A stretch of 63,979 nucleotides of DNA, the filler included, from Asterionella formosa (Eukaryota), in the NCBI GenBank assembly GCA_002256025.1. It is 23 parts of 23 records of this genome, joined end to end, with 100 filler letters (N's around TTAATTAATTAA, not from the genome) between each part and the next. Parts side by side here need not be neighbours in the genome. Positions count along the whole stretch, not along the records: positions 1 to 18,767 come from NKIB01003958.1; 22 more parts are not named here. One strand, written 5' to 3'. The position numbers and the translations under genes were made by a program. Positions 1 through 42,680 of the stretch are shown here, one piece after another (the first letter of the stretch is position 1; each line of letters begins with the position of its first letter). Under the pieces are notes generated by a model that worked only from the letters and a program-made list of their open reading frames with translations, ran no database searches and was not told where the DNA came from.

Positions 1-615
1 CGTTAAGTATTCCTTGAAAGTTCTTGTAGCACGCGTATGCGAGAAACTTCGCTTTCCACATGTGCCATTTAGCATCTTGCCCATCGAATGTCGGCAACCT
101 CACTGACGTGTCTTCGTCACTTCCCATGGTTCCTGAGTAGCCTGTGGCCTTAAAGTGAACGCTTTAAAGCGTGTTGAAAGGTCTCGTACTCCTTCCCGTC
201 TGACGGGTTCCTCTTACGTAAAACTTACCTGCTATACCACTAGTATTGTTATCTTCTTTCTGCTGCTAGCCTTCGTGCTAGTTTTCGCTATTGACCTTAC
301 TCTGTCAATTCTCACTGTTTCTTAATTATAAGATTAAACTAAAACTAAGTTTCAATCCCATTCATCACACTTCGAGAACCTGTTCTTCGTGTTCCCTTTT
401 CGTTGATGTAAACCTTCTTCTGATTGATCTAAGACATCAATCTCGTTAGCAAGCTTCTTGACATGGGAACGCACCATTTGACTCATTGGACTATAATCGA
501 GTCCACAGTCCTTGTGACTCATTATAGCCATTGATGCTATATTCTTGACATACATATACCTACCGTGACTACATTCCATTTTGATTATAGCAATAGTTCA
601 GTTACAACGAATAGC

Positions 616-1395
616 ATGGGAGCTTACCTCCGTACGAAAACTCTCATGTTGGCAATGTTGCAGCAGGAATGGTTGCCATCCACTTGTGTCCCCACCAAAG
701 AAGCCTTGTCGTCGTCACTGGCCAATGCAGGCGTGGGTCGCATTGCCTTTCTTCGACATGGCGCTACATCCAAACAGCCAACTGATGGCGGCGTTGACTT
801 TGATAGACAATTGACCAATATCGGGAGGGAACAAGCGCAAGAGGCTGGATCAGTCTTTGGACCACAATTTCATCCGTTCTTTCCAACGATACTAGTTTCA
901 CCTGCGCCTCGGACCATCGAAACCGCCAAGTTGTTCTTGAACGCTGCCAACCAATCTGAAGTACAACTTCAATCTGATTCTATCCTTTATGATGGTACCA
1001 TGCAACCCAGTGGGTGTCTCCTCTTTCGGAAGATTGGTTATTCTGGATTGCAGGATTACCTGAATTGTGAGAATGATGCAGATCAGAATGTGGCTCGGAT
1101 TGTTCTTGGATCATATGCTCATAATGTTATTAACATTATTATGAATGTACTCCAACAATCTGAAAAGACTTCTACTGCTACTGGTACTTCTAAGGAAACA
1201 ACCTTGTGGATGATTGGACATGCCATTTATCTACCTGCCGTTGCACTGGGAATTGCAACAATTCTGGAATGTGCCGACAAAAATCTTCTTCTTACCACCA
1301 ATACAGTCGAAGCTGAAGGATATGTTATTGATAATATCCACAACAGTAGTGTTCAACTCCTTCAACGACCTCAAGGATCATTATTGCAAAACTAA
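616..1395 (+). CDS. Histidine phosphatase superfamily protein (SixA/phosphoglycerate mutase-like)
   Basis: FLRHG catalytic motif, DFDRQLT..G..QA, LVSP..RT.ETA and a late GH motif. First in-frame ATG at 616 (the ORF track starts at GTG 565). Confidence 0.8.
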   Translation: MGAYLRTKTLMLAMLQQEWLPSTCVPTKEALSSSLANAGVGRIAFLRHGATSKQPTDGGVDFDRQLTNIGREQAQEAGSVFGPQFHPFFPTILVSPAPRTIETAKLFLNAANQSEVQLQSDSILYDGTMQPSGCLLFRKIGYSGLQDYLNCENDADQNVARIVLGSYAHNVINIIMNVLQQSEKTSTATGTSKETTLWMIGHAIYLPAVALGIATILECADKNLLLTTNTVEAEGYVIDNIHNSSVQLLQRPQGSLLQN

Positions 1396-1851
1396 CTACA
1401 GTATGTACAGCCAACAACTCTTTGCAAATGAGTTGATTCAACACAAAAAATGTATTTCCATATATAATTTATATTTGTATTGATATCTTCGTTACAGAAA
1501 TACTGGTACATAGACTATTATGTATACTAAAATGAATATCGGATGATACAACCCTCTTCATCAAAGGACAGGAGATGAAAATGTCAATTGAGTGGTGCAT
1601 CCCACCAGTGGTAGCATTCCCTAGGATTGATTTTGTTCCAAGCACCAACATAAACAACAAAAACACTAGAAATTCTCTTTATCATGTTGTAAAATGGTGG
1701 GTTGAGTGTCATGCTGTATGTATGTACCAGATACAAAAACTCTTCTTGGACTGTTGGAAGCAATCTAAAATAGAACAAGTCCATGTATGTATGTAGCAAC
1801 AAAGATTGTTTTCACATTAGTATAATAATAATAGTGTACTTTTGTGGTTGT

Positions 1852-3320
1852 TTACTCAAGAGCAGTGGCACCTGCTACAATCTCAAGAAGTTCTTGAGTC
1901 ACGGCAGCTTGACGAGCACGGTTGTACTGCAACGACAAGTCCTTGGCTAGTGCTCCAGCATTGTCACTGGCAGCTTGCATGGACGCCATACGAGCAGCAA
2001 GCTCGGATGCGACCGACTCCTGAAGAGTGCGTAAGATCTGCCCATTTAGGTAAAGAGGAAGGATGGAATTAACAATTTGGAGTGGGTCTTGTTCGAAGAT
2101 CATATCGTTGGGGAACTCTTGGGGGGCAGCAGCGTCAAGTGCGGTGCGTTCAACGCCGAACTTTCCGGAATCCGAGGTAAGCTGAAAGACTTCGTCTCCT
2201 TTGTTGGTAATCTCGGAAGCGGAGAAAGGCACTAGGGTGCGAGTGGAAGGAGTAGATGCAATGAGTGATACGAACTTGGTGTAAAGGAGCTCGACTGTGT
2301 CCGTCTCTCCAGCCAGGTAGGTATTGAGAATCTCCTCAGCAATAGCAAGGCCCTGCTTGGCATTAGGGTTCTGTCCACAATCAAACATTTTGCGGATAGG
2401 GTAGTTGCGGCGGGTGAAGTACTTGATTCCCTTCTTTCCGACAAGGATCATGTCAACATCGACGCCGTTCGACTTTAGCTCCTTGTAACGAGCTTCAGCC
2501 TTCTTGATCATAAACGAGTTGTATCCTCCGCAAAGCCCACGATCTCCGGTAATAACCACAAGGGTGACCTTGTTGACTTCACGTTGAGTCAAAAGGGGAA
2601 GGTCCACCGTTTCGGTTCCAAGGCGCGAAATAAGTCCTCCAAAGACAGATTGGAGTGTCTCCGAAAAGGGACGTGTCGCAAGGACAGCGTCCTGTGCACG
2701 ACGGACCTTTGCGGCAGCGACGAGCTTCATGGCCATGGTAATCTTTCTGGTGTTCTTCACCGTCTTGATACGGTCGCGAATGGCTGTTCGAGGGTGAGAA
2801 GGGCGGCAGTGTGAGCGAGCGATTCAACTGACAAGAATGTTCCGGCCAGATTCAGAGAACCGACCACGACGAAGGATGAATTGCTTGCTGTTGCTGCTAT
2901 TTTATGCATGCAGTCTCGGTCCCTCGTAGCGACAGCGAGGGAACCTCTATCAATCGTCCTCATGAGTGAAAACAGCCATGGACAGGGTAGTCTAAAATAG
3001 TTTAGACCTTTGGCATCAAAAGGTCGCGACGGCAGTAACGACTACGTAGGCTTTTCCTCAGTCGAGGTTTCGTACGTTGTACGTCGCCTAGTGATATTTT
3101 TCGTACGTAAGTGACCCAGCGCACGAGAAAGTCCACGCAGTGGGCGATACTCACCGTTGGCCTTGCCATCCATGACAATGGTGGCTCGTCGCGTGCGATG
3201 AGTATCCGGAGCAGCGACAGTGTTCAAAAGCGCCTTCTCTCCCACATTAGAGAATGCTACAGGGGAAGTGGTGAAGGCACTGGCGGTGGCCAAAAGCGTC
3301 GCGAACGATAGAAACTTCAT
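1852..3320 (-). CDS. atpC: Plastid ATP synthase CF1 gamma subunit, bipartite presequence, 2 exons (3320-3155, 2783-1852), 365 aa
   Basis: Splicing at GTGAGT (3154) and CAG (2784) restores MDGKANAIRDRIKTVKNTRKITMAMKLVAAAK. Also GDRGLCG and YNRARQAAVTQELLEIVAGA. Signal peptide ends ASA-F. Confidence 0.97.
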
Positions 3321-4290
3321 CTTGATCAAACAAACAAAAACAAATGGACCGCCTATTGTGTGCGTGCGTTTTGGTGGTGTGTGCGTATCTTGTTTGTGGG
3401 GTTGTCGTAGCCGTGAGCTTGTATGATACCAGCACGGCTCTCTGGTAAACAAATGGGACTGTGATGATCGAACGCTATATTGGATCGGGTGTTCAACTTG
3501 CTCGCATCAAGGTAGTGTCTGGCCTTGCTCCCATGGAACAGATTATGACTTTCTTAACTTGCAACAATGAAGAAATGCCTAGGAGTGTGCATGAATAGAC
3601 GAACTGCTTACATAAATGTACTCATACATGTATATATATGAATACATGGTACCAGGTATTGTACTGTGCCATGGTACCTGTTACTGGTACCTTGTACCAG
3701 GTACCAAACTCCCTAGATACCGGGTAGTGCACCTGTTCCCTTGGTTTTACCGTTACTCCAGTATGATGCTTCGTCCCCCCCCCGTCATCAAGTTGTCTAC
3801 CGATATGAGTACTGTACGCATCATGCAAATCACAGCTATCGTGCGGTAGGCTTCAAACATCACAAGCTACATATGTACCTGGTACTGGTACCTGGTACCA
3901 GGGTCCAGATACCTATCAGGTACCGGTACCAGGTACTGGTACCAGGCACCGCCAGGAGGACCTGATGGTTACCGGTACGTCATGTTCATTGCTTCGACGC
4001 TACTGGTACTGGAACCCCCAGGTACCGGTAGTGTACCTGGTAACAATCACATTCTTGGAGAACATTCGACTATTATCAATCCTCTAAGAAGCAACCTTGT
4101 ACACTACACCTACCCTGGTATTATCTAGGTGTACCAGGGCACCACGTACCAGGTACCCTCATGACAAAAATATCGTACATGTATTTACAGCATTCAATTT
4201 ATTTTTGATCAGGTAAAACTCATCGTCACACAAGCCAACAACCATCACGGCCGATTCATTCACTGTGCTCAGTACATTCAGTATCACATC

Positions 4291-4817
4291 ATGAAGTCCT
4301 TTGTTACGTTTGGCCTTGCTACTATTATAGCATGTTCTAGTCTTACTGTCGGAAACGCATTCGTTATCAACAACAACAAGCGCGTCGTCAGCATTCAGAC
4401 CTTGTCCTCCCTTCAAATGACACTGCTGAGGTATGGAGAAAAGAAAAAGGACTTTCCTGCCGGATCGCCTCTCAAGAATGCTTGCGCTAGTCTTGGAGTC
4501 AAGCCAAAATATTCTTGCAAATTGTAAGTTTTTGTCGGTTGTGTTTGTGTTGTATGCTATGATAATGAATACTATGCTACCGTATTTACATATACCTACT
4601 ATTGTTCATTTGGCTCCCCACTACTATTTCCTGTTTGATTATTTATTGTTGCTCTTACATTCATGCCTCTCTCTCTCACACACATACACACAACAGGGGG
4701 GATTGTGGATCCTGTACATTGTCAGTGGGAGGAAACAGAATGAAACCATGTGTGGGAAAAGTACCACCTGAACCAAAACTTAAATCATTGCTTGAAAATG
4801 GACTTGAAATCAAATAA
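4291..4817 (+). CDS. Small, probably plastid-targeted 2Fe-2S ferredoxin-like protein, 2 exons (4291-4523, 4697-4817), 117 aa
   Basis: GTAAGT donor at 4524 and CAG acceptor at 4696 join SCKLGDCGSC-x11-C. Hydrophobic signal peptide ends GNA-F. Confidence 0.8.
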
Positions 4818-5227
4818 CACTTTGTAAATTTGGTGCTATTCTTTATTGATAAAATGGAGGGTTGATACGATGGAGGGATGATGAAAGCTACTGGAATATA
4901 CTCTTTAATAACTGGTTCATCATAAAACATCTATAAAGTAGGAATCTCATTTGCTGAAAATGGTAAAAATGATTCTATGTAGATAGTACTGTATCATTTC
5001 AATTTGGTGCTCGAATGGTGTGTTTTCCAATCAAGAACTACCATGGTCATTGCCATTTCAAGCTCATAGGCATATTAGTATACCAGTATACAGATATTGT
5101 ACATGAATTCAATGGTATCATGACTTTGTCTAAATTTAGTGGAAACAGCTGGACATACAGTAATTTAAAGTCAATTTCAGTACTCTGCCAATGTTGATCC
5201 TTTTGATCTTAGTGTAGGAACGGCCAT

Positions 5228-6340
5228 TCAGTAAAAGGCCATGGCACTTGCCATTGTAAAATTCTGAACTAATCCTGTCACAGTCATACCACTCATATCT
5301 TCTTCCAACAACACATTCACTACATCTCCTACAATAATTGTGCTTGGTGGTTGAATGTTGTAGTCCTTGGCCAAGGTAGCAATGGTTTCCATAGTCCCCA
5401 CAACAGTCCGTTGATTGGGACATCCAGCTCGTTCCACAATGGCCACAGGTGTTGTTGATGGGTATCCTGCCAATGTGACAAGGCGCTGACACAATTCACC
5501 CAATCGACCCACAGCCATTAAAAACACAATGGTTTGTTCCTTATGGTATTGAATCAAATCAGGAGATGTCCCATCACGACCATATCCTGTACACATGACA
5601 ACTTGATTTGAAACACCACGATGTGTCACAGGGATGGATGCCAACAATGGAGCACTAAAGGCAGCAGAGACGCCCTGTACATTGTAATGAAGAGTTTGTG
5701 TTTTGTGTTTAGCGAGAGAGATTTCCAATTTGTATAAATGCAAAATGCAGTATTGTGGTCACTTTTTATAAAAACGTACAGGGATGACTTTGGGTTCCAC
5801 ACCAAACTTTCTAAACATGAGCACTTCTTCGCCACCACGTCCAAAGACAAAGGGATCACCAATTTTAAGCCGTACAACATGTTTCCCTTGTTGCAAGGCT
5901 TCATGGGCCAACCAATAAATTTCTTCTTGTGCCGATTCCGCACATCCCGGTTGTTTACGTGCCACTACAACAGGTCCTGTAATAATGTCTTGTATTTCGT
6001 CACTGACCAATCGATCGCAAATGACATAAATGTTTGGATCCATCAACAGTTTATAGGCCGCCACGGTCAACAATTCTGGATCGCCGGGCCCAGATCCCAA
6101 CAATGTTACCTTTCCTCCATTGGGGAGCTGTGATTGAGTAGGACCATTCGTGAGACGAGGGAGAGTGGCGCTGTCAGGTATTCCCCATTCATTCGAAGAG
6201 GAGGAGAGTACTGTTGTTGCAAGAAAGGCAAGACGGGGAGTTGAGGAGGGAGCGAAAAAAGCAAGGCTTGTGGCAGTCAAGCAACACCAACTGAGAAATA
6301 GCTGTTGTGTGGTTGTTCTAGTATTGGATCGTTTCATCAT
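5228..6340 (-). CDS. UPM1: Uroporphyrinogen-III C-methyltransferase (siroheme synthesis), plastid-targeted, 2 exons (6340-5780, 5674-5228)
   Basis: GSGPGDPELLT, VVRLKIGDPFVFGRGGEE and spliced VIP|GVSAA. GTACGT..CAG intron of 105 bp. Presequence SLA-FF. Confidence 0.93.
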
Positions 6341-7574
6341 TTTGGGTTTGCTTGTTGATTTGTGAAATGAGTGTGGGAATGAAAATGATTGTTTTTTGTG
6401 ATGTTGCCTGTGGAAAAAGGAGTGAAATTATAGCTACTTGTGGCTCCCTCCCTATGTGCCGTCAATGACTGCAAAATGCTGGAACAGGCGGGAATCAGAA
6501 CGGAAGGAGCAGGTGGTGGCAGTGGTGTAGGAGTAAAAAATAAAACAACACCAGGTGGGAGGCATTAGTGCGTATAGTGCGTATTTGGTATCAGGCTAAC
6601 ATCATCCACCATCAGGCATCTTCTGCGACGGGAGGAAGAAACAGGAAGAACGAAAGAAAGTAATGGCCGCCGCCGGCATTTTTTGAATCTCTTGGTTCCG
6701 GAAAGAACAGCAGGCAGACGAGGCAAAGCAAAGGTTCGCGTAACCGTACCAGTGACAGTCGACTACCGGTACTATTGTTACAGTACCTGGTACTTGTACC
6801 TGCTACCTGGTACTCCGTACCTCGTACGTACACAGTGGTGGTGGGTTTAGCTCTCATGATATGGCTATCTAACCTGGCGGTTCCAGTACCAGTACTTCTA
6901 TTTGGTCCTCCTACTTGCTTGGTGGTACTAATGAAGGGTATGGTACCAGGTCCATGGTACGGTACCTGGTACAGTACCAGTAGCGGTTGTGGCGGATGCT
7001 CGCTAGAATGCCGGCAGGCATTAGATAGGACCACAGTACGTACCGGTTGGGAGAAGCAAATATCGGTACACACGCCAGAGGTCCCTACCGGTACATGTAT
7101 ACAGAAACATGTATGTAAGCAAATGTCGTACAATGAAAACAACCAGAGTTGACATTTTACCGGTGTGGGGCGTTTTTTCGTGCATGTACTACCGGTAGGC
7201 AGACCAAATTAGCAGTTAAATCATCCAGAGCGAATACAAGAACCGTAAATTTATACGGGTATGTATGATGTATCAATCTAAGATTAGTTATTTTCAATGT
7301 CAAATACAACTTCTAGATGCACATGAATTATCGTCGCCGGCATGCGTGCATATAGCCAACGCACAAACATGGTCTACTTGAAGCAAGCAGGGGGCTCCGC
7401 GTTTACTGCAATCAATCAAAGCTACCTAGTACCTAGTACCTGGTACCATGTCCCAGTAGGTCGGCTGTCAAGCAAGAGTACCGGTACTACCACTTGATGG
7501 TTGCCTGACTACAACGGAACTCAACTCTTGTTGTACAGCCAGCCACTGTACTGCTATTGTTGCCGTCATTCACC

Positions 7575-8504
7575 ATGTCCATGGCAGCGGTTCGAGGGCC
7601 TCTTCAGTCCCCCATGGGCCAATGGGCGCTTGTGGCGCTCGGAGCCATCTACGTAATGAATCCTGAGAAGTTCCTTCACTTGCTGCAACGTGGGGTTCAG
7701 TCGCTACTCGAGGCAACGCCACAGCCTTTGTCACAGCAGCAGCTGCCCATTGTCATCCATAGCATGGGCGGTGGGTACAACCAACAGAATAGACCCATGT
7801 TTGGATACTACATGTTGATGCAGCTGACGATTGGGGCTGGACTTTGCTGGGGGTCCTACGCGGTGCTGACCACTGTTTTGCCAGACGCGGCCAAGGCCAT
7901 GTTGCCAGTCACCAAGGGATTTTTCAACACTGCCATTACGTCCTTGGGAAATGGCATCCTGTCGGTGCGAGATTCCTTGATGGAGCAACTCATGGGCTTG
8001 AGCGACAAGCAGGGGGAGTTGAGTGTCAAGCAAGACGAAACGCATGCGGAAGTTTTGGTGGTGAAGGATAGTGTCCATCATGTACGAGTTGACATGAATA
8101 GAGTTCAGCAAGTGCTGGATGAGTGCCAATCGTCCTTGACAGAAGCTGAGCAACGACAAGAGTATATCGGGAAGGGCGTGCGATTGCTGACACGAGGAGT
8201 TCATTCCTTGTTGCCACAAGATGCTGATTTGGCGTATGAATTGGATACGTACAATCGGGCTGGAACAGAGTTGCTGGACAAGCCACGCCGTACTCCCTCT
8301 GTTTCATCAAGTCAACAACAGCATCAACCAGCAGTATCAATGGTATCTCCTTCCCCTCCTCATGTTGCCAAGCACAGTACCCCCATGGTCACTGCAAATA
8401 TGGTGAATCCTGAAAATGAACATCCAATGAAGAAACGTGATTTGGATGACATTCGTGCCCTTTTACAAATGGTGCAATGTGGTTCTGTTCAAGTTATTTC
8501 GTAA
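7575..8504 (+). CDS. Membrane-anchored coiled-coil protein, DUF1664-like
   Basis: Intronless ORF with two hydrophobic segments, then MLPVTK..F..AITSL and a heptad region ending GV.LL. The family call is a recalled resemblance to DUF1664. Confidence 0.6.
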   Translation: MSMAAVRGPLQSPMGQWALVALGAIYVMNPEKFLHLLQRGVQSLLEATPQPLSQQQLPIVIHSMGGGYNQQNRPMFGYYMLMQLTIGAGLCWGSYAVLTTVLPDAAKAMLPVTKGFFNTAITSLGNGILSVRDSLMEQLMGLSDKQGELSVKQDETHAEVLVVKDSVHHVRVDMNRVQQVLDECQSSLTEAEQRQEYIGKGVRLLTRGVHSLLPQDADLAYELDTYNRAGTELLDKPRRTPSVSSSQQQHQPAVSMVSPSPPHVAKHSTPMVTANMVNPENEHPMKKRDLDDIRALLQMVQCGSVQVIS

Positions 8505-8932
8505 AATTGGACCTGTTGTTGTGGATTTTTAAAAGCACAAAGAAAATTCTCCTGTAAAATGTTGTGTGAGAGAGAGTTTGCGAGGATTTAGTTACTAATA
8601 GTAGTAGTAAGATTGGTAGATTAACAACAGTTTGTTTCCAACAGGCATGTCATATCTGATGATGTTGATGATACGGCCATCATTCTGTAGCTGGACAAAT
8701 AACATACAGCTGATGATCAGCCGTCTATCATACCTGTAATGTGGTATAAAGTTACGATGATATTATTAGACTATTAACTACTCCCAGTACATAGAGCTAC
8801 ACACGGTACCTGGTGATAAATAGATAATTTATGTATGTATTCATGCAATACACAATTCATCATGTCCTTGCTTCCATAACATTTTTATTACTGGCCTACA
8901 TTTCCCTCCAGACGTTCCTCCCCATCACCACC

Positions 8933-10452
8933 ATGACGGAATCTTGCTCCTCCTCTTCCACTGCGGTAGTAGCAGTGGTAGCCAAGGCAATCAAGGAGAC
9001 ACCCAAGAATCTAATCATTCCACCCAAAAAGCCCAAATTGACCAAAGCGGAACGACGAGCTCTTCAAGAATCTCAACGCGCTGACAAGGCTTCAACTCTT
9101 ATTGGGGACGCCAAGAAACCAGCATTATCAGTCAAGGATCCATCAACCAATACAACATCGCCTGCAATGGTAGCAGATGCCACTGTAAAAGCATCAACAA
9201 CAGCAACAACAACAACAACAGCAAACAACAGCAACAATAACAACAACAAGAAGACAGATACTACTAAAGCTATCGCTTCCTTGGCTCATTTACCTCCTTA
9301 TCGCGGTACGTATGATTGGTATTCTTTTGATTCTGATTGTGTATTATTATAGATCATACACACATACATACATACTCACCTTTATACCACTGATGCTTAC
9401 TTCTTCACCCTACCAACTATTTATACATAGACCCCACTGGTCCAGAATTTTCTGGGGTTACACTAGGTGGTCCTGAGTATTCCACCCTTCCTCCACCGGT
9501 TCTAACATTGGGTTTGGCCTACGCCCATGGGCATGTCCGTGGTGGAAATCCACGCGCTAGAACCATGTTGGAATGCTTTGCTACTGTCATTCAAGACTAT
9601 TATAATCCACCACCCAATACCAAGGATATGAGGCATCATTTGGATCAAATGGTGTTGAAACCATCATTTACATATTGGACCACTGTTTGTAGGCCCCATA
9701 GTGTCAGTATGGGAAATGCATTCACCTTTTTGAAAACAACTGTCGCTGCCTTACCTAGAGATGGCATGACCCTACAAGATATGAAAGACACATTGGTCGA
9801 AACCATTCATGAGTACATTCGAGAACACATTACCTATGCCGACCAAGCCATTGCAAATTTTGGATCGGAAAAAATTGTGACTGGTGATGTGCTGTTAACA
9901 TATGGCAATCCATCCGTCTTGCCAGTGCTGCTACAAACGGCCTTGGATCAGGGAAAGACATTTCGGCTCATTGTGGTAGATTCTAGACCACTGTTGGAAG
10001 GCAAACATCTTGTCCAACAACTGTTGTTGATGTACCCCGATTTGGACATTACCTACATTTTTCTTCATGCCCTCAGTTATGTCATGCCCCAAGTGACCAA
10101 GGTCATTTTAGGGGCTTCAGCATTGTTGAGTGAAGGATCTGTCTTATCTCGGGTTGGGACAGCTGGGATTGCTCTCTCTGCACATCAAGCGGGCATTCCT
10201 GTTTTGGTATGTGCTGAAACATATAAAATGTCGCATCGAACACAATTAGAAAGCATTACTCAAAATGAATTGGGAAATCCTCAAGATATCATTAAAGGAG
10301 AGGATGGAAAATTGTCATCCTGGAGAGTTATGAATTTATTGTATGATTTGACACCATCCCACATGGTGAGTGTCATTGTTACAGAATTGGGTATGTTGCC
10401 ACCCACATCAGTGGCAGTGTTGCTGAGAGAAATGAATCCTGGAAGTATGTAG
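8933..10452 (+). CDS. EIF2B4: Translation initiation factor eIF2B delta subunit, 2 exons (8933-9305, 9431-10452)
   Basis: KLTKAERRALQE and HLPPY in exon 1. CRPHSVSMGNA, VVDSRPLLEG, VLVCAETYK and VTELGMLPPTSVAVLLRE in exon 2. GTACGT..TAG intron keeps the frame. Confidence 0.93.
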
Positions 10453-11345
10453 CTTTGTTTTAATTGACACTGATATAATAATGCTGTCCATCATGTATTC
10501 TTTATTATTTCGATATTTACTATTAAAGTCATGCTGACAATTAGATAATAGTTTGTTTCTTGACTGTGCCTTCTTGATTTGTCAGACATTTGCAATTGCC
10601 TTGTCAATCATTCATTGAATTGACCTCTAGGTGCAGTTGCTCTCTAGAGTCCACTTAAAGGTTAGGGAAATCTTCTCCTGAAATTTCCTATTTCATTTGT
10701 TACATCCAATACACGATCCTCAACCATGTGTCTCTGAAGTAACCACCTAATAGTTTGTCGTGTCCGGTTAATGTTTTCTAGTCAGGAAACTTGAGAAAGA
10801 AACCACTGGTAAAATTACAACAATAATCTGATTTGGAATCAGGAATCTACTTCTGTTTCAATTAATATATTCGTCAACTAAATCTTCAAGCAGAACTTGA
10901 ATATCATTGTGCCTTTTTTCGTCTTGTTATTATTTTTATTCTCTTTGTCAATCGTTCACATGCATCATTATCCTCAACAAAAGTATTTCTTGACTCGAAC
11001 CATGGAAAGTCTTGATGAAGTAATTACTATTTGTCGAAATGGTGACTTTTCTTGGAAAAAAATTAATTAGCTCAAAACATCATGGCAATCGGAATTGTTG
11101 GGCGATCTGGATTGACACTATGGGTAATACAGTATATGTAGAGCACCATCAGGGTGGGGGGGGGGTTGTGAATGGGATGGATGATTTATATCTTTGCCAT
11201 TGTATGACTTTCATCTTGCTGCAACTTTTAACATTTCTATTATATTTAGAATGCTTAGTGCGAGTTCTTAAATGCACATCAATATATCAACACAAAATCC
11301 AACAACAAATGAATGAATGAATGAAATGCGCGCTGACCATCACAT

Positions 11346-14061
11346 CTAATAGAAGAATAGAATTGCAAGGATCACAGCAATAAAACCAATAAATTTGGAT
11401 CTCTCTCGATTGCGAAAATCGCGCCGGTGACCAGCGAGTCGGCCGCAATGCCAGTCAAATCGTAGACCAATGTTCCTCCATGCTCCTTTCTTAATATGTC
11501 CCCATAAGCGACCAAACTCCAAAATTATCACATACACATTCCCCAAAGAGCATGCAAGAATGCGAAACAAAAGAGGGTAAGTACCTTCTAGCAATGCTGA
11601 TCGGTTACCAAATCCTTCCCGGTCGAGAGTGTCAACGACGATATCCACAATACAAACACCAAGGCCAAAAAGCAAAAGCCGGAACAGGGATGCAAGTGAA
11701 TGATAGTATGGCGTCAACACTAGGAATACAATGAACCCGAGTGTTAATGATTCACTTGCATTTGGCCAAGATGCAAAGCAGTGGTCTGGGAATCGCGAGA
11801 ACAAAGCACAATCACCACAAGCCCAATTGAAGAAATGAGAGGATAAAGATAAAAACCCTCCTTTCCAAAAGGGGTGTTCCACAATGGCGGACGGGACAGA
11901 CTGAAATGCTCCACCGCCAAGTTGCTTTTCCATCCGTAAGCAAAAGTCAACATCTTCAACCCCCTCCTGTTTTTGCATAGTCGGTATCAAATCGCAGTGC
12001 TGGTACTTGTTTCACCATGATATTGGCTGTGACACCCCAAGCTGGATTCTTATAGTCGGCCATGGACGCAATCTCAAAGGCAAATGTCAAATAGCTCATT
12101 AACACCGCCGCATGAATCAGCTTAAGTGAAGACCGAGGAAACTTGACCATGCCAACAAGCCCCAATACTGGAACTTTCTTGTCCCTGTCGTGGCAGTGCA
12201 TCCAACTTCTATAGTTTTGGAGAAGCATCGGGTTTGGTATCACGTCATCGTCCAGAAACAACATATACTCCGACGCACTCTCGTCTAAGGCTCTATTCCG
12301 ACTTGCAGAAGCACCGAGATTGGTGGTATTGCAGCGTACACGAATGTTATTGCTCGCACCATTGCTAGACGAGCAACGGACGAGATAATCTTCCAAACAT
12401 GTGGCTGCATCCTTCAAAGTGCTCTTCATGTTGCCAGTCATTCCAAGAACATCTTCGGCGATCTCCTTCATAAGGATTGGGTTGTCAACTACCACGATGA
12501 ATGTCGTGCGCCAATCATCTGGTACTTTTAAGCTACAAAGTGTCACCAAATATTCAAGGTTGAGGCGGTAGGTAGGTATTCCAATATCCACAAGCATGAT
12601 CGTTTGTTTGCCAATGCTTGAATTTTCCAACAGGTAGGACCCAAGTGGATGACAGTCATTCACTACCCAGTCTCTCCAACCCGTTGCGTTGATTCTCTCA
12701 TATCGAGCCGGTTTCCCGTCGTTCCCTCCTGTTGTATTGGAAATTATGGCTTCTTTTAGGAACGGTGCAGCACCATATTTGAGGTACAATCTCTGAAGAT
12801 ACGGGTCTAGGTCCTGATTCCAAAACGAATGAACTCGATGTTGAGGTATCAATCCACCGAATATGGTCAAATGTTCTTTGCCTCTAATGCGAGATTTGTG
12901 AGTAAACGGATTCATTTGCTTTCGACTATTTATTTCGCATTCACTTTCAAATACTTACACCACGGGAAAAGTTGGAAACCCTGGGAACGAGGTATCGTTC
13001 CACCAAGGACATCCAAAGCCAAATGGACACTGAAGCGAATCCTGCACATCCAGAAACGCTCGATAAATGCAGCGATAGTGATAAGAACATTTGATATCAA
13101 TATCGTCACCTAAGAGCATCACCCAGCTAGCCCCACTTTCCCAGGCTAGCTTGGCCATCCGGTTCCACACAGGACAGATTGCAAATGGTTTTCCTTTCTC
13201 AACGGGTTCATTGATGATGATTTGCACCGGACAAGCTTGTCTGTGACTGTGCTTTTGAAAGACATCTAAAAGTATAGACACCTCATCACTCTCAGATTCG
13301 TCCTTGTCCACAGCCAACACGACCAAATACGTGCACAACTTGTCGTCTTCTAACTGACTGAGCATGCGGTCAATGTTCAGCCGTGATTCTTCCCCCAAGC
13401 GTAGAGTAATAAGGATTCCCTCTATTGGTCGAGTCGGACCAGCATTCTGCACTCCTGTCTCACTCAAGGCTTGCTCCCATGCAGTTCTGGAGATTTTGTT
13501 CAACTTGGACAACATGTCTGGCCATGAACTGATGTCACCAAGAGGAAGCAGTAAGCAGGGCCTGTCCTTTACCATAGTCTGCACCAAGGCTTCATGTGCT
13601 TTCGCACGTGCAAGAAGTGAGTTGGGGAGGGCTTGGCGTTCCAAACTTGTGAGTCCACATTTGTTTTCCAGGTCAAAGCGGACCCAATGATGAAGTTCTG
13701 ACAATACCGTGTCACCAACACTACGGCTGGTCACAACATAATGTACATCTACCCCGAGCCTTGCTTTGCAAAGGATCTTAAAGTCTTCAAGGGTAGCATT
13801 CGAAAGAAACACCATAATCGCAAACCAGCTATCACACAACAACTCGTGACAGGCTACCAATTCCATAATGGCATCTCTACCACCCCTCTCACTCCACCAG
13901 GTACTCACAGCATTCTCTGGATGGAACAGTATTGCTCTCATTGTTTCTTGGTCCTCATCAGGAAACTTCCGGTGAATGGTCAGGCCTAGATTTCTAGCAG
14001 CGACAGCCAGTGTTGTAGTGCCTGATCGATAGAGACCTAAATTGATAATGCATGTAGTCAT
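11346..14061 (-). pseudogene. Multidomain sulfotransferase-like P-loop + two GT2-like glycosyltransferase domains + C-terminal TM helices, about 879 aa if repaired; one intron (12958-12884) and a 1-nt frameshift at about 11958 (pseudogene or assembly error)
   Basis: IINLGLYRSGTTTL; MLLGDDI; spliced FPTFPV|VGKEHL; NLGASASRNRALD..MLFLDDD. KTGGG and EDVDFC are split by one extra T (GGT T GAA). Confidence 0.75.
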
Positions 14062-15096
14062 TATATTATAAGAAACCTCTGGTCCAAAAATATGAGAAGA
14101 GTACATTGTCACCTTCTAGCGCGATGTGTATTGAAGAGTCAGTACCAGGTACTGTACTTACTATGATGGGAATACATCATACATCATACACCATAGGACT
14201 TTTCTTTAAGTCCTCATGATAACAAGTAGGAATGAAAATTTCAATCAATATATCGGTGTACAACAGTGTACTATACCCACATAATAGTGGTACGTGATAC
14301 TCCGGTACCTGTTGAAGTATCTAACAAGAAGTAGTCTCAGGTAGTATTTGTTGAATATATGAGCTTACTAGGTAATCTTGATGTATAACTGGTTCGCTTA
14401 ACTGACACCAAAGTACCGGTATGCAAGTCTCTTGATATGCATTGAGTTCTGATGTATAAATATAAACCCAACCCTATATATATCTACGTTGATGCATGGA
14501 ATTGCTCACTCTCCCACACCGAAGGGAAAGTTCCGTCATATGCATGGTTTGTTGAAAAGTAACTGTACCATTGGCATATACTTGAATAATAGTATAGGGA
14601 CCTCATCCACAATCATCCAAGGTACTAGGATTATCCAATAGGATTAAAATCTCGTCACCTACCACCGGTACTTTGTAATCACAAAATCGTCAACGGAAAT
14701 TAGCATAACACAAACATTCATCAATTATTCCTTTTCGAAACTGATCTATTTATTGTAAATCTGTAATCAAAGGAATATTTAATACCAGGCACAGTATTAT
14801 CTTCCATTATAGTCGACCGTCGATATAGTGTATAGTATACATGCATATATAACATGCGTACCTACTGTAAATAGTCGATGAATTAAATTTTAGAGAACGT
14901 TATATCTAAACACATAATCGCACTAAGGATTTCATCATCCCTGTCCAGCATTCTCCCATCCCACCATATGGAAGAGTGAATTGCCTATTTGCAAAACAGT
15001 GTTTGCAATATGTCTGTAAATAAAAAACCGTTAGGCCTAACAGTTTTGCTGTAAGACTCACTGCCCCAAAAATTCTCAGTATGACATATTATTTTT

Positions 15097-15200
15097 TGAT
15101 TGATCATACAAAAAACTGATTGATCATACAGAAATATTGATTGATCTTACAGAAATACTGATTGATCATATTGATCATACAAAGAAACTGATTGATTGAT
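15097..15200. repeat. Degenerate ~21-bp tandem repeat (TTGATCATACAGAAATACTGA-like), about 5 units
   Basis: Repeated tgatcataca/gaaatactgat units are directly visible. Confidence 0.7.
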
Positions 15201-16424
15201 TAATATTGTTGCATTGATCTTACATATGCTTAGCATAGATCACATGCATGTTATGTAATATCTAATCGATTGCATTTGTAACATTAATAACAAAGCACAT
15301 TTAGTATACACTCATCATATATATATCAATGAGTTTTAAATCAATAGATCATACGATATGCTTATGATCAATACAGCACTCTCACTCTTATTATCAACTA
15401 ACTAGTTTTGGTGTTCGATCTAAAGATAGTAATTGTGAGATCAAATCAGTTGTTCATTCGATCTAACCTTTGGAATGCTAAAATCAAATAGAATTTTTAG
15501 CTTTCGATCAAACGTTCATTACTACTGATCTAACTTATTTCTCTCATTGATCAAACCTATAATCATCTTCGATCAATGATGAACACAAATCGAATTAAAT
15601 GGATTGCTATTTCATTCTCAAATATTCTACTTCTGGTCAACCATACTTTCCACTGTGCATCCTCTATCAGAATGAGCACACAGTGGTCTTCAATACCTTA
15701 ATTTTCACTTCTTCCGGTAGCTATGTTTAGATCATTGCCTTTTCAAAATAAAATGAGAGTAAACAAAATTGATGATGCTTTATTCGAACCTCTACCATTG
15801 CGAATGGCAGCAAGTCACATTCTCCAATGTTCTGGTATGACTTTCCTGTAAGAGAGAATAACAGCAATGTTACCAAAACTGTTGCATCAAGTAAGCAAGA
15901 CATCTAAATGTAGATATGTGCAACGAAACAATCACATGCACCTTTCATCACTCCAATTTCCGCATGAGCAGGCAATGTGCAAATAACTTGCCTGTGCTCT
16001 CATGGTTGATTGTTGCTTCCATTAAGAATGGTAGCAAGCCACATTCTCCAAGGTTCCTGTATGATTTTGAGGAGATAAATTCAATGTTAGCAAAAGTGTT
16101 GCAACGATTAAAGTATCTCCAGCCACAAATGTGCCACGAACTGATGACATAAACAATCTATATAACTTCACGTTCCAATCGACATAACGAGCATCAAATG
16201 AGAGTATAGTAACTTACCTATGCTCTCACTGTTGATTGATGGGTGACAGGTAGCGTTGTTAACCCTCACATCTGCATATATGGAAGGGAAAGATGTTATT
16301 AATGTCGAATTCCTAAATAATGGACACAGACACTACAAAGCCTCTGCAGCATTGTGCACAAACATATTAAGTGCGGTTTCTTACCTCATAATTAGGTTGA
16401 TTTTTATCGTTCGTCCTGAGGAAG

Positions 16425-16613
16425 TGTAGAAACTTTGAGTGGTAGCAGCGCACACGAACAGCGATACAATTTTATAGTTTGCTTCCGGTATCACACGGTA
16501 CCAATCATAAGACCCTTGGTAGTCACAGTTGAGAAGCAAAACAATCATATAACTAACCTCTTCTCACCGGTTGGTTTGATCCCGGTAGAAGGCTCGCCAT
16601 CACCATTCCCTCA
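16425..16613 (+). mobile_element. Possible Copia-type LTR remnant
   Basis: Purine tract GAGGAAG followed by TGTAGA, a CA end, and an internal hairpin CTTCT(C)ACCGG..CCGGTAGAAG. No pol and no TSD seen. Confidence 0.3.
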
Positions 16614-16793
16614 TCAGTTTGTTATGTGATGTCTGCATGTATGTCTACATTAAGCTCTAAAATGACCTATGCACTCCATAATTCCATAGAATTATAGTTT
16701 AAACATTGTAGTATGTTGTTCGCCCTTGATTTTCTATCCAGCTCAAGCTCTGGTTTCCCAGTCCACTGTATCAAATATCTCGGGCAAATCCCA

Positions 16794-17406
16794 TCAGGCG
16801 CGTTCCATGATATACCCCACAAAGTCAGTTCTATAGGCTGCTTCTTTAACGGCTGTGGGTAAATGACTTGCTGTAACCCATGTCTGGTTCAGCAGTAGGG
16901 TCGCCCGATGACCCGGTGGGAGTCGGTATTTGATTGTATTGTTGCTGTTGCACTTGAGACATGTTTGGACCAAACCAGCCAGTGCATCAAAGTCCACATT
17001 CAACTTAGCTTGCCATGGTAAATCAATGAATTCTGTCTCGTCATCTTGATGGGATTTCACATGATAAACTTGTACTTCCATTCTATTTTTCTTAGACAAA
17101 TTCATCGCTACCTGAATCAGATGATAGGCAGGACAAAAGGTCTAAGAGGGACAGATGTTTTTCCATTTTTAATTCATGAGACAGAGCCTTGTTATCAATG
17201 TAGACAGACACCCGACTTTGTGCTGGCCTCTCCATACATTTCCTGGAACATGGACCTGTAGATAAAAGCACATACACTGCCAGCATTGCTGCCAGAAAGC
17301 CCGTCACCTCAGGGCGTAGCGACGACATTTTTGACCCACCCCTGGGCACGAAGCCATACCCCCCTGCCTGAGCCTTGTTAACTCTACTTTTTCGAGATGC
17401 AAACAA
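16794..17406 (-). mobile_element. Degenerate RNase H region of a non-LTR retrotransposon (frameshifted)
   Basis: SSLRPE..G.LA, YIDNKAL and HVKSHQDD...LNVDFDALA RNase H motifs spread over two frames. Confidence 0.7.
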
Positions 17407-18767
17407 TTTCCTGGCATCTCCAGATTCCCAACAGCTATATCAATCTTCACAGATTCGAATTTGATCTTTTTATGCAGTAGTCATGTCCATTGTCTCTAAT
17501 GGAATTTATTTTTCATTGTTGGGTGAAATTCCAAAAGTGAACAATTGGCCTCATGTCAGTGGGCCATGGAAGGCAGGAAACTTGAGGCAAGAAAGGTAAA
17601 TTATCATGCTGCTTTACCAGTGGCGGAAGGGAAGATCGGAGCAATTGATTTTATGTTTGCATGGAAGTACCGGTGTCGCTGACCTTTCCCAGTCTTGTCT
17701 TCATGTCGGAAAAGTTGGAGTGATGTCCTGCCAACAGAAATCAGGACTGTGTTGCCCGATGATGACATGACATGTCACCAAAGTTCTTGTTGATGATCCA
17801 CATCATTGAAGATTTGTTGAGCTTCAGGTCATCCTCAAGCCTGACTTTGGAGTTGATATACTCCAACAACTTGTCAAAATGCATCCCACGGTCATTGAGA
17901 TGATAATCCTCCAAGATCCCCCTCCGAGGAGGCTAAAACAAAATAGCTCAATATTTGTGCATTTTGTGTCTTCCCATGCCGCTTCAAGTGGTTTGAACTC
18001 TTGTCAGTGATTTTAATGGAGCTTCCGGTTGAAGCGGCATGGGAGATCAATCAGTTGTTACAAAGAGCAAAAGAATGTGAACAACATGGTGAGTGACAAC
18101 AAAGCAAGCATTCTGATGTGATGATTTAATTTTTTTAGGGTTAGTGATAAACTGTAATGCTAGGCCTACTAAGGCTACCTGGTGCCCTAAAAAATTGCAT
18201 CCAGCCATACATACATATTTATTTTAGTTATGAAAATTTGTGTTAGATTACTGGTCATGGGATCAGCCAGGTACCCTGGGTTGTGATACATTTTCACATC
18301 AGGGGTTCACTACTACTATTTAGTGTGATGCATAGATAATCGTGCATTGCCCTTGTTTTCTTCGAGCTCCCTGGGTATTGTCCACTGTTTCCATCCTGCT
18401 TAGGGTCGTTCTTATCATTTTCGATTTGGTATCATTTTTTTTGAAAAAGTATCATGTAACGGCTACTCGATTTAAACCGAAAAAATCCATTCTCCACAAA
18501 TATAAAAATGAAATTGTATCACCAAAAAGTATCACGAAAATTCAACGGTTACGGGCTGGCTACAAACATGTGCTTTTCCTTCCTGACTACCGGTACATAA
18601 TGGTACCAAACCAGTCCTCAAACCATGCAAGAAATCTACGCGAATTATGTAAATGGACTACTATAGTCAATGGTATTTGCACATGTATTTGTTGTAGTCA
18701 CGTGATCATTTTCGTATTCTATTGCCTAGTACGTGCTGGACGAGAGATAGTAGAATGTACCGGTAGT

Positions 18768-37013: not shown

Positions 37014-37636
37014 ATTTACTATATGCAACCCTGGTACCTGTTACAACCGGTACACTCCCGATACCTAGGCACCATACTGTAAGATACAGCACCACTTACC
37101 GGTACTTTGCATGTAAGCATTGCTGTGTACTCTGTATTAACAGCTGCACCAGTGCTGGTAACAGGTACTGGGAGTACCTCAGTAAGTACCCGGCAAGCAA
37201 ATAGGAATCGTACTTCGAGTACCTGGTACCTGTTACCGTAAAACCTGGTGTCTCGTACCCCTCAATGTACACAGCCACGACTGATTTTACTTAGAGGGGA
37301 GTACAAGACATCGGACCTTTTTTGATAATCCAACACTGCGAGCAAACCAACTTCACCACCGTTTTCTCCGTAGTCTAAAACGTAAATAGCAATATTAAAA
37401 GATATTTAGTTGTAGGTTCAAACAGTTTCTATGATCAATACAATTTCTGTTTTTGGTGCACCGGTGCGCCCGAGTTTTGTGATGGCATCAATAGTAATTC
37501 CAAGTGTGTGTACCCATTTGTACCTAAGCCTACAACNNNNNNNNNNNNNNNNNNNNNNNNNNNNNNNNNNNNNNNNNNNNTTAATTAATTAANNNNNNNN
37601 NNNNNNNNNNNNNNNNNNNNNNNNNNNNNNNNNNNN

Positions 37637-38797
37637 AACCTGGCTTCAGGAATTGGTCCTAAGACCATTCCGAAGTCAGAAATGGACATGGTGCTCAGGG
37701 GTTCCGCGCTGGCTGAAACGCTATGCGCTCCCCCATGCGCCAGTGTCTATTGTGGAGAGGTACCGGTACTTGGGTGCTGGATGGCAGAGCCTGGAACCAA
37801 AGGTACTGGCTGAGGTAGTGAAAGCATGCATCTTGGAGAGAGAGTGTGGGATCCGACGGAATTTGACTCGTCCGTCAGGGGCCCGCACAGTGTGGTATGA
37901 GGGAGCCGGATTTGACAAGCATCCACTCACACGGTCACGTGTGGGGGGCAGTCCCAACGACCAAGCAGGACTGGCTTTGATAGTTCGGTGTCGGATTGGG
38001 GCATTTGTAACTGTCCCCACCTTGGTGGGGTGGAAGCGAATGCCTCATAGGTATTTGAGGAAGTGTCCATTTTGTGGTATGGATGAACCAGAAACGCTGG
38101 AACACTTAGTGTTCACGTGTGGTCGGTGGCGTGGTCTACGCACCGAGCCACACATGGCAGAATTGATCGCGAAAGTTCGGACGTTAGGGCCGAATTTCGC
38201 CCTCGGTTTTGACCAACAACGGTTGGCATGGCTCCTCGGAGGGAGTTGTGATAACCGCTGGGTACATGGATGGATGATGGGTGAACCAACCGGAGTCACA
38301 GCACAGCAAAACTGTGACTCTTCGGTTGACAGCTCATCATCCGATGGGGACGGTAGCCAGATGGAACGGAACCCGGCAGGGGCCACCACCCTTGCCAGGT
38401 TCCTGATGAGCGTTGTTAGCCTTCGTGCTAACATAATCAGGTCCCGTTGGGGGTCTTACGCAAGTGAGGCATTTGACGGGGTCCCACACACCTCCACGGG
38501 CCAACGCCCCGACGGGTAGGGCAGACCGCGTACTGGTCAAGACTGGGGCTGCACACAGGTTTTTAGTGAGTGAAAGTCTCACACTACCTCGCCCAGGTGA
38601 GAGGGGCGGGGTGCCTCACCGGACACTGGGACATGATTGGATGACGGGGTGCCTCAAAAACATTCCTGAACACATGAACTGGTGGGAGGAGTTCGAATCC
38701 TCCCATGATGCCCCCCAAGCACCCCACATCGATGGGGCAGGCGGGCAAAGCGGCCGGATAGGTTTTCTCCTGGCGCCTTGGAACAGCCAAAAAAAAA
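37637..38797 (+). mobile_element. LINE 3' end, copy 1: ORF2 C-terminus with CCHC zinc finger, 3' UTR and poly(A)
   Basis: CPFC-x8-H-x4-C, stop at 38519, A-run at the contig end. Confidence 0.88.
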
Positions 38798-38897
38798 NNN
38801 NNNNNNNNNNNNNNNNNNNNNNNNNNNNNNNNNNNNNNNNNTTAATTAATTAANNNNNNNNNNNNNNNNNNNNNNNNNNNNNNNNNNNNNNNNNNNN

Positions 38898-40058
38898 AAC
38901 CTGGCTTCAGGAATTGGTCCTAAGACCATTCCGAAGTCAGAAATGGACATGGTGCTCGGGGGTTCCGCGCTGGCTGAAACGCTATGCGCTCCCCCATGCA
39001 CCGGTGTCTATTGTGGAGAGGTACCGGTACTTGGGTGCTGGATGGCAGAGCCTGGAACCAAAGGTACTGGCTGAGGTAGTGAAAGCATGCATCTTGGAGA
39101 GAGAGTGTGGGATCTGACGGAACTTGACTCGTCCGTCAGGGGCCCGCACAGTGTGGTATGAGGGAGCCGGATTTGACAAGCACCCACTCACACGGTCACG
39201 TGTGGGGGGCAGTCCCAAAGACCAAGCAGGACTGGCTTTGATAGTTCGGTGTCGGATTGGGGCATTTGTAACTGTCCCCACCTTGGTGGGGTGGAAGCGA
39301 ATGCCTCATAGGTATTTGAGGAAGTGTCCATTTTGTGGTATGGATGAACCAGAAACGCTGGAACACTTAGTGTTCACGTGTGGTCGGTGGCGTGGTCTAC
39401 GCACCGAGCCACACATGGCAGAATTGATCGCGAAAGTTCGGACGTTAGGGCCGAATTTCGCCCTCGGTTTTGACCAACAACGGTTGGCATGGCTCCTCGG
39501 AGGGAGTTGTGACAACCGCTGGGTACATGGATGGATGATGGGTGAACCAACCGGAGTCACAGCACAGCAAAACTGTGACTCTTCGGTTGACAGCTCATCA
39601 TCCGATGGGGACGGTAGCCAGATGGAACGGAACCCGGCAGGGGCCACCACCCTTGCCAGGTTCCTGATGAGCGTTGTTAGCCTTCGTGCTAACATAATCA
39701 GGTCCCGTTGGGGGTCTTACGCAAGTGAGGCATTTGACGGGGTCCCACACACCTCCACGGGCCAACGCCCCGACGGGTAGGGCAGACCGCGTACTGGTCA
39801 AGACTGGGGCTGCACACAGGTTTTTAGTGAGTGAAAGTCTCACACTACCTCGCCCAGGTGAGAGGGGCGGGGTGCCTCACCGGACACTGGGACATGATTG
39901 GATGACGGGGTGCCTCAAAAACATTCCTGAACACATGAACTGGTGGGAGGAGTTCGAATCCTCCCATGATGCCCCCCAAGCACCCCACATCGATGGGGCA
40001 GGCGGGCAAAGCGGCCGGATAGGTTTTCTCCTGGCGCCTTGGAACAGCCAAAAAAAAA
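38898..40058 (+). mobile_element. LINE 3' end, copy 2, with a premature TGA at 39115-39117
   Basis: Near-identical to copy 1; CGA changed to TGA. Confidence 0.88.
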
Positions 40059-40182
40059 NNNNNNNNNNNNNNNNNNNNNNNNNNNNNNNNNNNNNNNNNN
40101 NNTTAATTAATTAANNNNNNNNNNNNNNNNNNNNNNNNNNNNNNNNNNNNNNNNNNNNTACTTGTTGAGCATAGTTGAGCAT

Positions 40183-40885
40183 TGCATGTCTCCGTAGTGA
40201 TTCTAAATTGAGATGTGCCACTATGGCCTTCTCATTTTCGGAGCTGCTACAAATAGTCTACAGCGATAACTCTAGCAAGTACAATATAGAAAAAGAAGCA
40301 GAGGATGAGTAGCTGACAACAATTGAATTCGTAAAATCGTTAAGAATGAGCTGTTGCATATTTTAACCTTGCATGTCGCCGTAGTGAGTCAAAATTGAGA
40401 TGTGCCACGATGGCCTTCTCATTTTCGGATCGGCTACAAAAAGTCTACAGCGATAACTCTAGCAAGTACAATATAGAAAAAGAACCAGAGGATGAGTAGC
40501 TGACAATAATTGAATTCGTAAGTTCGTTAAGAAACAGCTGTTGCATATTTTAAATATTCAATGCATGTTGCCATCATAGTGAGTCAAAATTGAGATGTGC
40601 TGCAATGGCCTTCTCCTTTTCGGATCGGCTACAAATAGTCTACAGCGATAACTCTAGCAAGTACAATATAGAAAAAGAAGAAAAGGATGAGAAGCTGACA
40701 ACAATTGAATTCGTAAAATCGTTAAGAAACAGCTGTTGCATATTTTAACCTTGCATGTCGCCGTAGTGAGTCAAAATTGAGATGTGCCACGATGGCCTTC
40801 TCATTTTCGGAGCGGCTACAAAAAGTCTACAGCGATAACTCTAGCAAGTACAATATAGAAAAAGAAGAGAAGGATGAGCAGCTGT
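40183..40885. repeat. Tandem satellite A, ~187-193-bp unit, about 4 copies
   Basis: tgcatgtcgccgtagtgagtcaaaattgagatgtgcc...actctagcaagtacaatatagaaaaagaa recurs at about 40183, 40369, 40562 and 40752. Confidence 0.92.
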
Positions 40886-41300: not shown

Positions 41301-41419
41301 TGGTCATGCAGCAGTTCACNNNNNNNNNNNNNNNNNNNNNNNNNNNNNNNNNNNNNNNNNNNNTTAATTAATTAANNNNNNNNNNNNNNNNNNNNNNNNN
41401 NNNNNNNNNNNNNNNNNNN

Positions 41420-42580: not shown

Positions 42581-42680
42581 NNNNNNNNNNNNNNNNNNNN
42601 NNNNNNNNNNNNNNNNNNNNNNNNTTAATTAATTAANNNNNNNNNNNNNNNNNNNNNNNNNNNNNNNNNNNNNNNNNNNN

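Follow-up and report, generated by a model that had tools for sequence, protein, structure and literature searches.

TA-bounded palindromic modules upstream of genes in Asterionella formosa, probable scars of transposon excision

The closest described counterparts of the sequences considered here are the footprints left by Tc1/mariner-pogo elements. In the accessible parts of the reports concerned, excision footprints of 0 to 4 bp are given for Passer (PMC9976928) and for ZB and Sleeping Beauty (PMC7913693), while the Tc1 footprint is cited as TACATGTA (PMC3520976). The modules of this genome resemble such footprints, as far as those texts go, in that TA is kept on both sides, the added bases match element ends, and the derived state is an insertion at a plain TA. 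They differ in the copy number of a single word, which runs to tens of thousands, in forming stacked periodic arrays, and in having a 5-base CCWGG core, which exceeds the 0 to 4 range and has no source in the ~0.9 Mb examined. In the Triticeae, the accessible text of PMC1925063 describes repeated insertion and excision of Stowaway elements at one site, with a TA..GTA scar, CTCCCTC ends and a TIR consensus. An element beside an older footprint at the same TA, and CTCCCTC ends, are common to both cases; the Triticeae example concerns one intron, whereas here the modules are genome-wide, lie 5' of genes, involve several element types and keep a 7-base register. A further parallel comes from another stramenopile, Phytophthora, in which the palindromes M93 (TACATGTA) and M94 (TACCGGTA) are listed for promoters (PMC3597505, PMC3520976, in their accessible portions). 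The identical 8-mer TACCGGTA is abundant 5' of genes in both organisms, but in Phytophthora the words are treated as factor-binding sites and a footprint origin for TACATGTA was dismissed on abundance (PMC3520976), whereas here TACCGGTA is seen to arise by insertion and TACATGTA is enriched just 1.4-fold (458 kb). No description of such footprints or promoter palindromes in a diatom, and no relevant title on footprints as a source of tandem repeats, was found in the literature searched, a search outside which most subscription journals fall.

The window analysed is a stretch of 63,979 nucleotides, filler included, composed of 23 contigs of the A. formosa assembly GCA_002256025.1 (15,436 contigs, 68.4 Mb in total); contig C3958 supplies positions 1 to 18,767. 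An initial annotation of this stretch had reported a lattice of overlapping palindromes in the spacer between atpC and a ferredoxin gene. The lattice is real and the flanking genes fit: positions 3646-4160 are one 7-mer-dominated array between two divergent genes, 131 to 645 bases 5' of the ferredoxin-like start (4291) and 326 to 840 bases 5' of atpC (3320). The leader exon of the nuclear atpC and the occurrence of this stretch in freshwater sequencing runs suggest a freshwater alga with a secondary plastid, probably a diatom. The array contains TACCWGGTA 7 times, TACCGGTA 3 times, TACTGGTA or TACCAGTA 4 times and GGTACC 11 times, above the maxima of 1, 1, 2 and 5, respectively, in 1000 dinucleotide shuffles (means 0.05, 0.05, 0.14 and 0.94). 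The genes and the module parse are as follows.

1852-3320, minus strand: atpC, a nuclear gene (PF00231, E 5e-91, and ORFs), with a leader exon at 3320-3155 and a main exon at 2783-1852, limits by eye.
3643-3706, no strand: older 7-base array of perfect and decayed units, with TA-bounded cores CATGG, CCAGG, CCTGT, CTGG, CCTTG and CCAGG.
3876-3946, no strand: dense block with shared TAs, cores CCTGG, CTGG, CCTGG, CC, TCAGG, CCGG, CCAGG and CTGG.
3970-4042, no strand: TACCGGTA twice, TACTGGTA once and TACCTGGTA once.
4111-4157, no strand: TACCCTGGTA at 4111 and TACCAGGTA at 4147.
4291-4817, plus strand: small ferredoxin-like gene with two exons (4291-4523, 4697-4817), limits by eye; the second exon alone has a 2Fe-2S match, to Fer2_3, which is weak and misses the cut-off (E 0.08), and exon 1 has none.

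The same chains had been noted at 10 other stretches of the window, all 10 of which contain at least one TACCWGGTA. The further statement that the chains have no fixed period is only partly right, as the 6-mer and the 7-mer differ and the latter keeps a dominant 7-base register in which decayed units (CATGG, CCTGT, CCTTG, TCAGG) sit between TAs.

The predicted enrichment over background extends to the whole genome. TACCGGTA is found at 28,528 sites compared with 1,718 for the reversed word, and TACCWGGTA at 26,886 (TACCAGGTA, 13,279 + 13,607) compared with 902 for its reversed control. Several related words are raised in 458 kb, namely TACCAGGGTA (41-fold), TACCCGGTA (8), TACCAAGGTA (7), TACCAGTA (6.6), TAGCTA (2.4) and TACTA (1.5). 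This sample of 434 to 458 kb, made up of the window contigs and 10 long contigs, is not random, 6 of the 10 being known to carry a tract and 4 a pogo end. One-mismatch variants are also in excess (682 versus 186, and 237 versus 88), as decaying scars would lead one to expect. That the chains would lie 5' of genes and be rare in exons has likewise held up. With ORFs of at least 150 aa counted as genes, the 6-mer and 7-mer occur at 0.04 and 0.01 per kb within ORFs, at 1.35 and 1.54 per kb in divergent spacers, and at 0.21 and 0.07 per kb in convergent spacers. Up to 500 bases 5' of ORF starts there are about 1.5 modules per kb, compared with 0 to 0.2 on the 3' side of stops, at a level TA density of about 70.

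The chains of 3646-4160 and TACCGGTA are two classes that differ in behavior. All 199 cases of the 6-base module (TACCGG) are single, their flanks vary, and GG..CC-flanked doublets of this module number only 45 genome-wide, against 2,186 for the 7-mer. The 7-base module (TACCWGG) occurs in a GG..CC context, with G before it in 83%. Its doublets comprise 1,234 pairs with the same W (56%), 595 that read T then A and 357 that read A then T. Pure slippage would produce almost no mixed pairs and independent orientation would produce half; since A/T differs between neighbors in 952 of 2,186 pairs (44%), most units are not slippage copies, and the proportion implies about 13% slippage if slippage and independent orientation alone act. 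Slippage does act, given that runs of 9 to 10 identical units exist. Tandem units copied from neighbors, the hallmark of a slippage microsatellite, do not characterize the chains as a whole, and are found in part in these long runs.

The origin of the modules was approached by comparing strains and repeat copies. Contigs of four runs (X2, X6, X7 and X8), from four studies, were aligned to positions 3300-15000. Run X2 has gaps inside the tract at 3646-4160 (record 3974-4398, 20 gap letters), and the strain indels described here come from the 12 of 71 rows listed, none of them inside that tract.

6783-6792, no strand: TACCTGGTA, at which X2 has six extra bases, TACTGG, at the left TA of the existing module.
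7375-7376, no strand: plain TA (ggtc-TA-ctt) that reads TACCGGTA in X2, X6 and X8 and not in X7; the flanks hold no template.
7423-7448, no strand: TACCTAG twice, then TACCTGGTACC; X2, X6 and X7 lack one of the TACCTAG units, a slippage-type difference.

No element-filled allele was seen at a scar site among these 12 of 71 rows. A 9-base in-frame insertion at 8333, within the ORF at 7575-8504, is carried by X2, X6 and X8. Over 9,759 bases, X2 and the window differ by 51 substitutions, and at least 2 modules distinguish them. With a diatom mutation rate near 5e-10, this would take hop rates of the order of 1e-6 to 1e-5 per copy per generation, a plausible range, as a rough figure.

When 946 kb of DNA was aligned against itself, with a strict filter and de-duplication, 476 non-tandem indels of 3 to 16 bases between repeat copies were obtained. 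Pooled, 84 of these are TA-bounded and 79 are bounded by CA/TG, so the signal lies in fixed cores and not in TA-bounding as such. The TA-bounded cores include C/G (27), GC (14), CCGG (9), CCG (3), CCAG (3), CC (2), CCA (2) and CCAGGG (1). Of 49 non-tandem 6-base indels, 16 are TA-bounded, and 9 share the identical core CCGG; six of these nine events have the filled allele in the minority, three are tied and none has it in the majority, with one case of 1 versus 58 loci. Module-sized insertion at TA, as the initial annotation had supposed, is therefore documented by the polymorphism at 7374 in 3 of 4 runs and by the nine CCGG events, and TACCGGTA shows TA on both sides, an empty allele with a single TA, a derived filled state and no copy of the flank. 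Compound insertions of 9, 13 and 14 bases (TACCTGGTACCGG, TACCTGGTACCAGG and TACCGGTAC) occur at plain TAs, which shows that different scars stack at one TA, again as supposed, and the double 7-mer modules of 13 and 14 bases are among the insertions that arise at plain TAs. A single TACCWGG at a plain TA was found in 0 of 16 strict non-tandem 7-base indels; looser filters, in which counts are not de-duplicated, gave one, adjoining a TACCGG-like word, together with one GGAG core inside a tract. One tandem TGGTACC indel was also present. A separate scar class consists of TAGC insertions at TA (14 events; TAGCTA 2.4-fold enriched), with weak upstream bias.

The genome contains the resident TA-targeting families with CC..GG ends and a transposase that a footprint origin had called for. 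DDE_1 has 93 matches in the genome. The pogo-like family A has ends reading TA/CCGTAAAACC (TA/CCGT; 109 ends), copies that are 99 to 100% alike, and a transposase encoded by an intact 433-aa ORF (DDE_1, E 3e-20) with 34 to 35 residues between the last two catalytic D. In one full element (L069:466-2930), the transposase gene is accompanied by another ORF, of ~145 aa and convergent to it. Family B, also pogo-like, is CCG-ended (TA/CCGTATAC), and family C ends in TA/CAGTG. A CCGG-ended family is represented by one end (TA/CCGGGAACG; 42 ends, varied flanks), and neither the opposite end nor a transposase for it turned up in the ~0.9 Mb of 68 Mb examined. The cores CCGG, CCG, CC, C/G and GGAG are all ends of resident TA-targeting elements (families A and B, the CCGG-ended family and a CTCC-ended mariner). 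Family A shows no preference for CCWGG (1 of 36), and a motif lies no more than 40 bases away in 9 of 36 ends versus 4.7% of TAs. When 220 isolated 6-mer half-flanks are set against 36 family A flanks, some positions deviate weakly in the same direction. Inverted repeats flanked by TA and beginning with CGAG and CGGT, unclassified as to family, were noted at L023:985-3490 and L029:8509-9319.

The element with CCWG ends that had also been predicted was not found: the ~0.9 Mb examined, about 1.3% of the genome, held no TA-targeting element with CCA or CCAG ends, and candidates yielded 0 of 16 for DDE_3 and 0 of 2 for Transposase_1, for which the positive control was likewise silent. A candidate CCAG-ended element on contig C12935 turned out to be a CTCCCTC mariner within a TACCAG-TA-CTGGTA site.

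Excision by Tc1/mariner elements leaves overhangs. Pogo-like and related CCG- or CCGG-ended elements would insert at TA and excise, with end-joining leaving TA-CCGG-TA. In the case of CCG ends, the 3-base overhangs would pair through the terminal CG to give exactly TACCGGTA; alternatively, the word may derive from CC contributed by each end, or from a CCGG overhang. The plain-TA insertions and the CCG- and CCGG-ended families together argue strongly for a footprint origin of TACCGGTA, the insertion itself being observed and the excision of TA-targeting elements being very probably its agent. Counting against the explanation, the resident ends number a few hundred, and hopping would have to be long and steady to leave ~28,000 scars.

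That elements land in the tracts was also anticipated and is seen for an LTR retrotransposon, a mariner and motif-adjacent family A ends. Examples in the window are listed below.

14313-14508, minus strand: decayed 3' LTR of the CCWGG-targeting LTR retrotransposon, with outer flank GGTACCTGT; a 7-base insertion near 14336 resembles a decayed module.
14660-14670, no strand: 9-base insertion giving TACCACCGGTA inside this decayed element; at this point young copies have CA, not TA.
37234-37300, plus strand: a terminus of the pogo-like family A, TA/CCGTAAAACCTGG, with a TACCTGGTA 14 bases away.
48551-48881, plus strand: two TACCTGG/LTR junctions, with LTR starts at 48558 and 48725.
63498-63584, no strand: 87-base MITE in the centre of TACCAGGTA (taccag[...]caggta).

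The LTR retrotransposon has TG..CA LTRs, its integrase last (Integrase_H2C2) and a fixed 5-base duplication, CCWGG; its domain order suggests a gypsy-type element. Directly outside the LTR stands CCWGG, at 41 of 59 outer ends in one set and 40 of 53 in the other (81 of 112; hand counts among 100 of 516 and 100 of 318 matches listed, a few rows being duplicates), and the exact GGTACCWGG at 35 of 59 among the matches listed. A flank set of 23/27 was left out because the query contained the flank. Both true solo LTRs (2 of 2) have the same CCWGG on either side. On contig C1361 (L096), a single array has taken two LTR elements, with one 7-base unit between their insertion points. Among sequence-specific LTR retrotransposons, gypsy, ZAM and 17.6 of Drosophila use a palindromic target centred on the duplication, and the same is true here; the difference is that this target is 13 bases long (GGTA-CCWGG-TACC), is made by mutation and is shared with two DNA transposon types.

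One of these is a DD39D mariner of the Stowaway type, which has CTCCCTC ends, a TA duplication and 39 residues between D2 and D3 (185 ends; the copies read have broken frames). Among 100 of 185 matches listed, hand counting gave CCWGG before the TA in 35, GG in 60 and TACCGG in none, compared with 1.0% (CCWGG) and 7.4% (GG) of all TAs; a flank set of 28/62 was left out because some of its loci were picked by flank. The two flanks of one element differ, and CCWGG is therefore the target and not the element end. Six further DD39D loci, 45 to 70% alike to the query, showed neither paired ends nor a CCAG end. DD39D-family elements were also seen in a TA within the end of a family A element (L199:502-1312, C5930) and within an LTR end (C7316). 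The second type is a MITE of 87 to 89 bases, which sits at the centre of TAC-CWG-GTA with a target duplication of 1 or 3 bases, C, W and G occupying positions -3 to -1 in 81, 78 and 88% of 44 local ends. It had been tried as a CCAG-ended element and was rejected, as W tracks the target and not the end type, making CWG target DNA. The three elements are unrelated and none has ends spelling CCWGG; all land in register on the 7-mer, which makes the arrays hotspots of insertion. Both the upstream bias and the shared targeting may stem from accessibility or from a host protein.

Because the ~0.9 Mb examined held no CCWG-ended element, no clean single TACCWGG passed the strict filter and slippage acts, we only infer that the 7-mer chains dominating 3646-4160 originated as footprints, so that the initial proposal of stacked footprints is strong for TACCGGTA and weaker for the remainder. 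The chains are probably explained by a two-tier scar process upstream of genes. Every 6-mer scar would create TAs flanked by GG or CC, and these would take 7-base CC(A/T)GG modules in near-random orientation. We lean towards the 7-mer being the scar of an unfound, or perhaps extinct, CCA(G)-ended element preferring GG-TA-CC. Each 7-base module makes two new targets of the GG-TA-CC type, and arrays would grow as a result. Slippage lengthens some arrays and substitution decays them, and the LTR retrotransposon, the DD39D mariner and the MITE now land in register, which turns them into hotspots. The main rival for the 7-mer is templated repair after mariner cuts, in which GG-TA-CC is cut at its TA, by the DD39D mariner or a different nuclease, and the neighbor is copied forwards (same W) or by fold-back (opposite W). 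After a cut by the mariner, its C-end would leave GGTAC-3', from which copying of the next unit could be primed directly, and the mariner target profile given above fits the array, as do the G before 83% of 7-mers and the lack of a CCAG-ended element in ~0.9 Mb. Such repair would, however, require a first 7-mer as template, yet some plain TAs have gained double modules although their surroundings offer no template; the near 50:50 split of same and opposite W would be a coincidence; and the sole mariner scar seen in a tract is GGAG, the mariner's own end. We regard this route as unlikely. A degenerate microsatellite, (GGTACCW)n, growing by replication slippage alone would account for the runs of 9 to 10 identical units, the TACCTAG unit gained or lost at 7423, the tandem TGGTACC indel and the 56% of same-W pairs, but the 44% of pairs with differing W, the almost complete lack of tandem 6-mers and the non-tandem insertions at plain TAs make it very improbable. 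Slippage had been named as an observation that would tell against footprints. It contributes to the 7-mer chains, whereas as sole cause of the 6-mer it is refuted by the single status and non-tandem plain-TA insertions of TACCGGTA.

Two further readings fare worse still. The LTR retrotransposon could itself build the arrays: its target duplication is CCWGG, and if the element were lost except for its terminal T and A, CCWGG-TA-CCWGG would result, arithmetic that yields one new unit. Only same-W pairs would be expected, yet 44% differ, bare CCWGGCCWGG occurs 0 times in 458 kb, and LTR elements are not known to excise routinely, so this origin seems hardly credible. CCWGG is a known bacterial methylation word, and the enriched window word TTAATTAA is indeed a spacer artefact, but methylation of CCWGG or GTAC inserts no bases and the tracts are present in contigs of four independent runs; a methylation motif or an assembly artefact has the least to recommend it of all. 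A reading of a different kind is that the modules are selected as binding sites, with origin a secondary matter; the promoter protein concerned, which might bind GGTAC half-sites as a dimer, would also tether integrases. The modules do have the positional bias of promoter sites, with about 1.5 per kb in the 500 bases 5' of ORF starts versus 0 to 0.2 downstream at equal TA density, and three unrelated element types land in register. In the accessible portions of the Phytophthora reports, TACCGGTA is promoter motif M94 (PMC3597505) and TACATGTA is read as a homeodomain site, its footprint origin being dismissed (PMC3520976). Against this, modules come and go between populations, appear in transposon copies and decay freely, and insertion preference explains the upstream bias equally well. 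Selected binding sites are rather doubtful as the main account, although they are compatible with the two-tier scar process and neither excludes the other. Searches of metagenomes for orthologous loci gave 0 matches to an exact 24-mer and 341 pattern matches to a protein query, none confirmed, and a 20-mer had 0 matches in viral contigs.

Together the two words amount to ~55,000 perfect copies, one per 1.2 kb, lying 5' of genes and differing between wild populations. Footprints are usually rare single-locus curiosities; here past transposon traffic that has left no element in place may be a main source of promoter variation. Abundant palindromic promoter motifs identified from enrichment alone can be mutational scars, a point of some relevance where the same 8-mer is listed for Phytophthora (PMC3597505, accessible portion). 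Three unrelated integrases acting on one genome-made word also offer a testable case for the evolution of target specificity. As a tentative conjecture that we would not back at even odds, a self-feeding scar ratchet might write most of the over-represented promoter words of this genome: pogo scars would seed GG-TA-CC, a transposase-driven step would extend them to 7-base arrays, and the arrays would serve as a landing code, perhaps through one host protein, shared by mariner, LTR element and MITE. In oomycete promoters, too, TACCGGTA and TACATGTA may have come about in this way.

Some minor features of the window can be recorded. The contig joints (18768-18867 and 21 others) read N44-TTAATTAATTAA-N44, from which the top enriched 8-mer, TTAATTAA, arises as a spacer artefact and not as biology. 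A repeat with GGTACCGGTAC is common to several 1161-base contigs at 37637-43841 (37759, 39020, 41542 and 42803) and slightly inflates window counts. The ORF at 535-1395 resembles a histidine-phosphatase (by eye), that at 5228-6340 matches tetrapyrrole methylase (PF00590), and that at 9394-10452 is like an eIF2B-type subunit (by eye).
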